Virus record (IMG/VR): IMGVR_UViG_2521172733_000013
DNA: 39,572 nt
From: a virus
Lineage: Duplodnaviria; Heunggongvirae; Uroviricota; Caudoviricetes
Reading direction: 5' to 3' (one strand)
Under the pieces are notes generated by a model. It was not told the DNA's origin. It saw only the letters and a program-made list of their open reading frames with translations, and did not search any database. Position 1 is the stretch's first letter, and the number at the start of each line of letters is the position of its first letter. Shown piece after piece: positions 37,498 through 38,955 of the stretch. The translations under genes and the position numbers were made by a program.

Positions 37498-38955
37498 ATG
37501 ACAGTAAAAATTTCTGGCGTGCTTAAAGATGGCACAGGAAAACCAGTACAGAACTGCACCATTGTGCTGAAGGCCAGACGAACCAGCAGCACGGTGGTGG
37601 TGAACACGGTGGCCTCTGAAAATCCGGATGAAGCCGGACGTTACAGCATGGATGTTGAGCATGGTCAGTACAGCGTCACCCTGCTGGTTGAAGGTTTTCC
37701 GCCTTCACATGCCGGGACCATCACCGTGTATGAAGATTCCCGACCCGGTACGCTGAATGATTTTCTCGGTGCCATGACGGAGGATGATGCCCGTCCTGAG
37801 GCACTGCGCCGTTTTGAACTGATGGTGGAAGAGGTGGTGCGTAACGCAGAGGAGGCGAAGAAGAATGCCGGAGAGGCGGAGACGTCAGCGAGGAATGCCG
37901 GCATATCAGCCAGTCAGGCAGAAGAGAGCGCTGCAAATGCTGACACTTCAGCAGGGGATGCATCGGAGTCAGCCCGGCAGGCGGCAGAAAGTGCAGCCTC
38001 AGCAAAGCAGTCAGAGGAGGCGTCCTCGTCCTCGGCCTCTGCGGCCGCTCAAAAAGCCAGTGAGTCATTACAAAGTGCAACAGATGCTGAGTTGTCAAAA
38101 AAGACGGCAGAAAGTGCAGCCGGTAATGCAGCCAGGGATGCAACGACCGCAACAGAAAAAGCCCGGGAGTCAGCAGAAAGCGCACAGTCAGCGGAACAAA
38201 GCAGGATAGCGGCGGAAGAGGCCGTAAACCGAATCCCCACCGTGGTGGGACCTCCCGGGCCAAAGGGGGAACCGGGGCCCGCGGGTCCTCAGGGGCCGAA
38301 GGGAGATAAAGGAGAGCGTGGCGACACCGGCCCGGCAGGGGCAACCGGTGAACGGGGGCCGGCAGGTGATGCTGGTCCGGCAGGCCCGCAGGGGCCGAAA
38401 GGCGACAGGGGAGAGACCGGTCTGACGGGAGCTGCAGGCCCGGCAGGGCCACAGGGACCGAAAGGGGATACGGGAGCTGCAGGGCCGGCAGGGCCACAGG
38501 GACCGAAAGGGGATACGGGAGCTGCAGGCCCGGCAGGGCCACAGGGACCGAAAGGGGATGCAGGAGTCGCAGGTCCGGCAGGGCCACAGGGACCGAAAGG
38601 GGATACGGGAGCTGCAGGCCCGGCAGGGCCACAGGGACCGAAAGGGGATGCAGGAGTCGCAGGTCCGGCAGGACCACAGGGACCATCCGGAAGCCCTGAC
38701 AGCGGGCTGTTTGGTGTCGGTTCTTTTGTTCTTGCGGCGTATTACCAGACGTATTATTCGGGGGACCGTGCCCCTGGCTCAACTGTTGCCGGGTCATCAC
38801 TGTCTGCATGCTGCCTTTCGAATGGTACTCCCCTGGTTGCTTCCGGTAATGTGGGGGAGACCCGTTTACCGGGCACGTGGCGTGCATGTGGTCCGATGCT
38901 ATGGACATCATCTCCGGGTATCAGACAGGCAGGATTATTTCAGCGCATATCATAG
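37498..38955 (+). CDS. stf: Side tail fibre protein (Stf-like N-terminus, collagen-like Gly-X-Y region, distinct C-terminal domain)
   Basis: 485-aa ORF; N-terminal ~130 aa resemble lambda Stf ([28 protein letters not shown]...); Ala/Ser/Glu-rich linker; long GPxGPxGxKGD collagen-like repeats; C-terminal ~90 aa non-lambda. Confidence 0.8.
38431..38690 (+). repeat. Tandem ~45-bp DNA repeats encoding the collagen-like ([15 protein letters not shown]) units of the tail fibre
   Basis: Five to six near-identical 45-bp units of the GCTGCAGGCCCGGCAGGGCCACAGGGACCGAAAGGGGATACGGGA type in direct tandem, with alternating ATACGGGA/ATGCAGGA ends. Confidence 0.85.

Follow-up and report, generated by a model that had tools for sequence, protein, structure and literature searches.

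A collagen-like side tail fibre gene of a lambda-like prophage with a copy-number-variable 45-bp tandem array

The viral record IMGVR_UViG_2521172733_000013 (39,572 nucleotides; this whole stretch of DNA is called the window below) is a lambda-like prophage that extends from an integrase-side open reading frame (ORF; 1..1143, minus strand) to tail fibre genes at its right end, where an stf-like gene (37498..38955, plus strand) encodes a protein of 485 amino acids (aa). This protein is very probably a side tail fibre whose stalk would consist of a trimeric coiled coil and a collagen-like domain, whose length would change by the in-frame gain and loss of repeat units, and whose tip would be assisted by a chaperone. 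The evidence comprises the domain make-up of the protein, repeats whose identity exists at the DNA level and whose copy number varies while the flanks hardly change, and a tip that is rare and has distant kin. The gene is an allele of a family described by Ghosh et al. (2012; PLoS One 7:e37872; PMC3368898), the 'EHEC prophage collagen-like proteins' EPclA-D (EHEC, enterohaemorrhagic Escherichia coli), which are built from domains termed PfN, PCoil, Col, and PfC; that work already covered both the architecture and the variation in collagen length. The novelty over published work is modest and lies in an array that varies from 2 to 7 units against identical fibre ends and near-identical flanks, in the constant pairing of the tip with a DUF4376 gene, and in the likely distant kinship of this rare tip with myovirus fibre tips.

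Domain architecture of the fibre protein

The fibre gene, its domains, and its partner gene are laid out as follows:

37498..38955, plus strand: stf-like side tail fibre gene, an EPclC*-type prophage collagen-like protein of 485 aa (ORF; PHROG tail fibre families at E 3e-135; near-identical orthologue EC55989_1078)
37498..37896, plus strand: N-terminal tail-attachment (collar) domain, aa 1-133 (PF08400; match to PDB 9E7M)
37900..38247, plus strand: Ala/Ser/Glu-rich low-complexity segment, aa 135-250, 116 aa, the PCoil of Ghosh et al. (from composition)
38248..38697, plus strand: collagen-like domain, aa 251-400, 50 Gly-X-Y triplets (regular-expression count; PF01391)
38425..38684, plus strand: near-perfect tandem array with a unit of 45 base pairs (bp; 15 aa) in 5.8 copies, the polymorphic part of the gene (Tandem Repeats Finder; identity matrix; repeat family D1; block insertions and deletions between alleles)
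38698..38952, plus strand: C-terminal tip domain, aa 401-485, 85 aa (motifs GVGSF, LPGTWRxC, and GLFQRIS)
38964..39572, plus strand: DUF4376 gene encoding 202 aa, a probable tail-fibre chaperone or cap (PF14301; PHROG 1141)

The protein's N-terminal end is of the lambda Stf type. The Pfam profile PF08400 ('prophage tail fibre N-terminal') is matched over its full length by residues 1-133 (E 2.9e-68), residues 1-94 resemble the Ur-lambda Stf collar domain, which is the chain 'Tail fiber protein' of PDB 9E7M (E 1e-48), and BLASTP aligns residues 1-242 with residues 1-249 of lambda orf-401 at 60% identity. In the Ur-lambda structure 9E7M, twelve Stf N-terminal domains form a collar at the gpV/gpM junction that leads into four trimeric side fibres (PMC12617516), and by homology the collar domain encoded in the window would likewise dock on the tail tip.

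The segment that follows is rich in Ala (30%), Ser (20%), and Glu (13%), with Leu, Val, Ile, Met, and Phe together making up 6.9% of its 116 residues, and aligns with the proximal region of lambda Stf. Because its length and character match those of the PCoil domain of EPclA (PMC3368898), it is probably a trimeric coiled coil. The initial annotation of this DNA, in which a lambda-like Stf N-terminus led directly into collagen repeats, was right about the lambda-like N-terminus but overlooked this intervening segment. The protein shares defining sequence features of the EPcl family, namely a PfN domain of the PF08400 type, a 116-residue PCoil almost without Leu, Val, or Ile, and a (Gly-X-Y)n domain rich in Pro at X in which the recurring EPcl motif GP(Q/P)-GPK-G(D/E) appears seven times as GPQ-GPK-GD. 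With a PCoil, a single collagen domain, and a C-terminus that does not resemble PfC (BLASTP against the EPclA PfC, E 2.5), it belongs to the EPclC* type, under which Table 3 of Ghosh et al. lists EC55989_1078 (467 aa, PCoil 116, Col 140; PMC3368898).

The collagen domain and its tandem DNA array

A regular-expression count finds exactly 50 consecutive and uninterrupted Gly-X-Y triplets at 38248..38697, in agreement with the initial annotation of a side tail fibre with about 50 collagen triplets at 38230-38700, and the PF08400 match, the 9E7M match, and the gene order agree with that identification as well. The domain is matched by the Pfam family Collagen (PF01391, E 6.8e-24). Its X positions are occupied by Pro (56%) and Asp or Glu (26%), its Y positions by Ala (38%), Lys or Arg (24%), Gln (16%), and Thr (14%), and its coding region has a G+C content of 72%. 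Ghosh et al., who state that the Col lengths of the EPcl proteins vary in multiples of three, calculate with 0.29 nm per residue (PMC3368898), and on this basis the domain would measure ∼43.5 nm.

Tandem Repeats Finder reports an array with a period of 45 bp, 5.8 copies, 91% matches, and a score of 436 at 38425..38684, which covers the distal ∼260 of the 450 collagen-coding bases (∼58%). The 45-mers that begin at 38425, 38515, and 38605 are identical at 45/45 positions, those at 38470 and 38560 at 44/45 and 40/45; the final unit (38650) grades into unique sequence. The initial annotation quoted the repeat unit correctly as [16 protein letters not shown]; a GDA-GVA variant of it also occurs, and unit types among the alleles include GDT/GDA, GAA/GVA/GDT, and PAG/PTG/PRG variants. 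The near-perfect tandem array described there is, however, confined to this distal part: the first 177 bp of the collagen region (38248-38424) also encode G-X-Y, but 45-bp frames within them are only 13-28/45 identical. The peptide [11 protein letters not shown] recurs twice upstream of the array (38275 and 38374) with differing codons, and the identity between units therefore exists at the level of DNA and does not reflect protein constraint alone. Since the distal units agree even at synonymous sites, their identity indicates recent duplication or concerted evolution rather than protein-level selection alone.

Copy-number variation among relatives

The collagen block adjoining the C-terminus spans 27-59 triplets among the 24 alleles with the 85-residue C-terminus that were read, and in all 24 it stays in frame and the C-terminus is intact. 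Five complete genomes that carry the same gene have 44, 44, 54, 54, and 59 triplets. Nine further complete genomes (L007-L015) have a second architecture, in which PfN is followed by 18-19 triplets, a G-G-P kink, and a second collagen block, without the coiled-coil segment; this second block holds 27, 32, 37, 42, 42, 47, 48, 52, and 58 triplets, lengths that mostly step by five triplets, or one 45-bp unit. Another nine loci, found by a lookup of contigs that encode the exact downstream DUF4376 protein, have 30, 30, 35, 39, 44, 49, 54, 54, and 55 triplets; draft contigs supplied several of the shortest alleles. At the 0.29 nm per residue given above, the window-type single-block alleles (30-59 triplets) would span ∼26-51 nm, with ∼4.4 nm per unit.

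The variation is also seen against an otherwise constant background. In loci that match the window at 100% over the N-terminal 250 aa and the C-terminal 85 aa of the protein, the array has 2, 3, 6 (the window), or 7 units, and one relative (L025) differs from the window by precisely one additional [15 protein letters not shown] unit. The prophage of E. coli 55989 differs from the window at 2/3927 nucleotides upstream and 0/875 downstream and by 54 bp within the array; HUSEC2011 (L002) and FDAARGOS_349 (L005), both O104:H4 and both from Germany, show 1/3927 and 0/875 mismatches and arrays that are 135 bp (three units) apart; and 55989 differs from an O111:H21 relative by a clean 90-bp block. 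Near-identical DNA units and copy-number polymorphism among near-identical relatives, the marks of a tandem-repeat contingency locus, are both found here, and the prediction of a changing repeat number in the initial annotation is borne out. That annotation had named invariant copy number together with a common C-terminal type as the outcome that would speak against it; copies vary, and DNA for the tip is present in only 33/5426 complete E. coli genomes. The change between the window and 55989 is not a single clean slippage event, as it consists of 45 + 9 bp together with changes of unit type, and it resembles the outcome of recombination or conversion with a further stf copy more than that of a single slip. 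The exact 485-aa protein of the window is absent from a collection of ∼15 billion proteins, and the adjacent 202-aa DUF4376 protein is found exactly on 469 contigs. An on/off phase-variation switch was considered and rejected on the grounds that the unit is 45 bp and 24/24 alleles are in frame, so that length changes and phase does not.

Arrays of 45 bp that are common to several prophages could also be collapsed or mis-joined during assembly, and the copy-number variation might then be mainly an artefact around a stable array. Several observations favour this explanation: the number of matching places per E. coli genome has a median of 2 and reaches 19; seven O104:H4 assemblies, most of them from the 2011 outbreak, give a gene of 1539 bp in 5 (C227-11, 2011C-3493, and the FDAARGOS strains) and of 1404 bp in 2 (HUSEC2011 and FWSEC0009), with flanks that are identical but for 1 substitution in 4.8 kb; and several of the shortest alleles have the draft origin noted above. 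Many database entries, moreover, are partial proteins that end in the array, where draft assemblies often break; P0001 is such a partial, as is P0002, a cluster of 95 member sequences. Closed genomes of unrelated strains, on the other hand, have at least 12 different lengths and differ in the order of the GDT/GDA, GAA/GVA/GDT, and PAG/PTG/PRG unit types and not in their number alone, all alleles are in frame with intact ends, and the same sort of length variation is listed in Sanger-era genomes by Ghosh et al. (PMC3368898). A predominantly artefactual origin is accordingly considered improbable, and the genuine gain and loss of units is preferred, while the 1404 and 1539 bp of the O104:H4 assemblies (44 and 59 triplets) may be either real rapid change or a collapse of the repeat during assembly.

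The effect of the array on sequence records is itself visible. P0001, P0002, and P0003 are C-terminal fragments of 113-146 aa that start inside the array, which implies that contig breaks within this repeat are common in draft assemblies. In NZ_CP027394.1 (L005, 3001..4539), RefSeq calls the fibre gene an incomplete pseudogene ('missing C-terminus'), whereas the sequence is an intact 512-aa ORF with a normal C-terminus. The array thus misleads both assembly and automatic annotation, with partial proteins, a false pseudogene call, and the discrepant O104:H4 lengths as the result, and fibre typing from short reads is therefore unreliable at this locus.

A further proposal, which is regarded as unlikely, is that the array is a hypervariable locus that tunes fibre length on epidemiological time scales, with the reach of the collagen domain (∼26-51 nm) selected to match the thickness of the O-antigen or capsule. 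Change on such time scales is suggested by the 44 and 59 triplets among O104:H4 assemblies and by the 2 to 7 units in otherwise identical fibres. If the proposal were true, fibre reach would act as a quantitative dial of host range that is separate from the exchange of receptor-binding tips.

The C-terminal tip and its DUF4376 partner

The C-terminus was described as non-lambda in the initial annotation, and BLASTP indeed finds no similarity to lambda orf-314 or Tfa anywhere in the fibre or its partner. The tip matches no Pfam family even at E 10 and none from NCBIfam. Its length is invariant and its sequence 82-100% identical across E. coli alleles, and its rarity in complete E. coli genomes stands beside the 4841/5426 in which some part of the gene is matched; no isolated phage among 50,697 holds tip DNA at close similarity. 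An exhaustive phmmer search with the tip against 1.84 billion representatives gave 5 matches at E <= 1e-3, among which P0008 and P0009 alone are real distant relatives, P0007 being a spurious low-complexity match and P0006 a chimeric fragment, and a word-indexed protein search yielded no more than five fragments, all from the same E. coli protein.

More distant kinship is nevertheless detectable. A profile of the tip matches the extreme C-terminus of the gp47 tail fibre of Pseudomonas phage Pa193 (E 0.005), with the motifs GVGS, GTWRC.G, and LFQR[IV] in common, and in the Klebsiella T4-like phage Mexia the distal (long) tail fibre has a C-terminus with 35% identity to the tip. An AlphaFold model of the tip, built from a shallow alignment, has a predicted local distance difference test score (pLDDT) of 64, which is of moderate confidence; a Foldseek search of this model against the PDB gave no match to a solved structure, so no fold is assigned, while the search against BFVD gave ∼20 predicted phage proteins, mostly annotated as tail fibres, at probability 1.0, a result to be used with caution. 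Judging from these similarities, the 85-residue tip is a widespread fibre-tip module and distant kin of myovirus fibre tips. Its position suggests that it forms the trimerising or receptor-binding end of the fibre. It contains three cysteines at tip residues 38, 39, and 64 (window 38845..38850 and 38923..38925); one cysteine of the adjacent pair (ACCLS) and the LPGTWRxC cysteine are invariant even in the 45%-identical P0008, and the invariant cysteines could form a disulfide or a metal site.

The gene that follows directly after the fibre gene in 24/24 loci read encodes a DUF4376 protein (PF14301, E 1e-16, with 61.7 bits where the cut-off is 25; PHROG 1141, E 1e-79). The DUF4376 proteins V22 gp27 and A5 gp9 of Alteromonas phages were shown experimentally to be tail-fibre chaperones and may also be transient caps (PMC10579305), and by analogy the protein encoded in the window is probably a tail-fibre chaperone or cap. 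An AGGAGG sequence lies 5 nucleotides upstream of its ATG. The start of the gene is annotated in two ways across genomes, giving 672 or 609 nucleotides, and the AGGAGG site belongs to the 609-nucleotide start. In GCA_041312365.1 (L022, 1..3109), an identical DUF4376 gene adjoins hyaA, but the genes ahead of it encode a portal protein and an S49 protease, and J, lom, and stf are not called; this prophage appears to be rearranged or deleted.

The cassette of tip and DUF4376 gene is also found with the second architecture, in prophages at no fewer than six chromosomal sites (near potB, yecD/aspS, ompW/yciE, prfC, raiA, and hyaA/tRNA-Ser). An alternative explanation is that the collagen repeats serve mainly as a recombination linker, through which cassettes of tip and chaperone are swapped onto a common N-terminal half, and that copy-number change is a neutral by-product. 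Identity to the common EPclA genes of O157, Stx phages (Stx, Shiga toxin), and phage 2B8 runs over nucleotides 1-1036, into the collagen region, and is then lost; past this junction, the 85-residue tip and DUF4376 stand in place of PfC and a PF06820 ORF. Since the identity to EPclA ends inside the collagen region, collagen DNA has also been a site of tip-cassette exchange. The same tip is joined to two N-terminal architectures and to an EPclB-like protein of 652 aa (P0008), and collagen-like repeats of Streptococcus thermophilus phages have been proposed as recombination hot spots (cited in PMC7242381). The linker function is compatible with, and not exclusive of, a fibre stalk that gains and loses units, but it leaves unexplained why an array next to the tip is homogeneous yet variable within one prophage lineage; as the principal role of the repeats it is possible, though held with some doubt.

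Genomic context

The fibre gene stands in the order J, lom, stf, DUF4376 gene, which is the place of lambda stf at the right end of the late operon. The genes upstream of it are:

33284..36679: J homologue, 88% identical to lambda J
36747..37346: lom homologue (PF06316, E 1.6e-126)

Terminator-like hairpins with T-runs occur just after J (36698..36717, plus strand) and just after lom (37450..37479, plus strand), the second of which ends 19 nucleotides ahead of the stf start codon. With a hairpin on either side, lom is bracketed in the way of a separate 'moron' unit, and expression of stf would need antiterminated late read-through. Two long overlapping ORFs, one antisense (37721..38911, minus strand, 396 aa) and one in another frame (38558..38974, plus strand, 138 aa), were rejected as genes because their translations are of low complexity and rich in Pro, Leu, and Arg; such ORFs are most simply explained by runs of GGN-CCN codons, at 72% GC, that stay free of stops in other frames.

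The neighbourhood of lom, a lysogen-expressed gene, and the position of the fibre gene after a terminator-like hairpin are points that would suit a quite different protein, namely a collagen-mimicking surface adhesin or virulence factor expressed by the lysogen, like streptococcal Scl or Legionella Lcl (in which repeat number is also variable), and not a part of the virion. Partial NCBIfam matches to SclB, Lcl, and SclA were also obtained (E 1e-23 to 1e-31), but their scores of 84-108 bits fall far below the cut-offs of 325-500 and are limited to the G-X-Y region, and on these grounds an adhesin of the Scl/Lcl type was rejected. The N-terminus is an Stf collar domain; no signal peptide, anchor, or LPXTG motif is visible in the sequence; position and partner gene fit tail fibre modules; and the related EPclB was localised to phage tail ends by immuno-electron microscopy (PMC5155283). 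The adhesin explanation is therefore given very little credence, and the assignment as a side tail fibre is retained.

Proposed mechanism and significance

In the proposed mechanism, three chains would trimerise, and their N-terminal domains would dock as a collar on the tail tip in the manner of Ur-lambda. The 116-residue coiled coil and the 150-residue collagen triple helix would then form a hinged stalk of roughly 60 nm, with the 85-residue domain as the distal tip, which probably contacts the host surface and is probably folded or capped with the help of the downstream DUF4376 protein. Units of 45 bp would be gained or lost in frame when units mispair, by replication slippage or else by recombination, unequal or ectopic, with stf copies elsewhere in the genome. 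Trimer and triple-helix formation in the window protein are expected by analogy with the paralogues EPclA and EPclB, which as recombinant proteins form trimers with a thermostable triple helix and a trimeric α-helical coiled coil and appear as hinged dumbbells of ∼55-62 nm (PMC3368898). Fibre length may also affect adsorption and fitness.

A number of the points given above weigh against this reading: the array of the window cannot be derived from that of 55989 by one clean slip, O104:H4 assemblies with almost identical flanks disagree in length, and database proteins frequently end in the array. As regards the tip, its model is of moderate confidence and matches no solved structure in the PDB, and the homologous part of Pa193 gp47 was left unmodelled in the cryo-electron microscopy structure (PDB 9B45 sequence). 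The role of phi24B gp61, one of the related fibres, as a receptor-binding protein is itself debated.

Side tail fibres help to decide which E. coli a temperate phage, often one that carries virulence genes, can adsorb to. A repeat-variable stalk joined to a rare cassette of tip and chaperone is one route by which prophages diversify, and current understanding is left unchanged by it.

Comparison with known systems

The closest known system is EC55989_1078 of E. coli 55989, a direct orthologue from the same prophage lineage, whose first 250 and last 85 aa are identical to those of the window protein and whose DUF4376 gene is the same. It has 44 triplets (467 aa) where the window has 50 (485 aa), contains an initial 12-aa unit, [12 protein letters not shown], that is missing from the window, and differs in the order of its unit types. 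EPclA, which is found in O157:H7 prophages (e.g., ECs2717) and in phage Lambda_2B8, has the same succession of PfN, PCoil (116 aa), and Col, with 92-95% nucleotide identity over the first 1036 nucleotides. Its 37 triplets, however, show little tandem DNA identity, and its 76-aa PfC C-terminus (PF06820-type) and small downstream PF06820 ORF stand in place of the 85-aa tip and DUF4376 of the window; between the two C-termini no similarity is detectable.

The Stf protein of lambda (Ur-lambda) has a homologous collar domain and a proximal Ala/Ser-rich rod and is encoded at the same place after J and lom. Its accessory fibres speed adsorption, which is the presumed common role. It is without collagen, its distal half is gp37-like, binds OmpC, and needs Tfa, whereas in the window a gp37-like distal part and a Tfa partner (PF02413) are replaced by the collagen stalk with its tip and a PF14301 partner. 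The lateral fibres of the EPclB type (933W/Sp5 ORF67 and phi24B gp61) likewise place a collagen-like shaft between an N-terminal attachment region that includes coiled coil and a small globular domain at the C-terminus, but in these fibres Pf2 repeats part two collagen blocks, the tip is of the PfC type, and the setting is a podovirus, that of short-tailed Stx phages. These fibres are located on the virion, as seen by immuno-electron microscopy for EPclB (PMC5155283) and by cryo-electron microscopy for phi24B gp61.

Outside the EPcl family, the C-terminal tips of Pa193 gp47 and of the Mexia fibre share the same extreme C-terminal domain of ∼80 aa, with the motifs GVGS, APG, GTW(R)xCG, and LFQR[IV]/WKRI at ∼30-35% identity, but carry it on myovirus fibres that lack collagen, and in Mexia the fibre gene is followed by a Tfa-like chaperone (PF02413, weak) and not by DUF4376. 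In-frame tandem collagen-coding repeats within a host-recognition protein, with spontaneous deletion of repeats, are also known from the antireceptor of Streptococcus thermophilus phages and from ORF8 of the virophage Guarani, in which an 81-nucleotide deletion accompanied an expansion of host range. These are unrelated proteins of unrelated hosts, with shorter units (27 nucleotides in Guarani) and without an Stf-type N-terminus.

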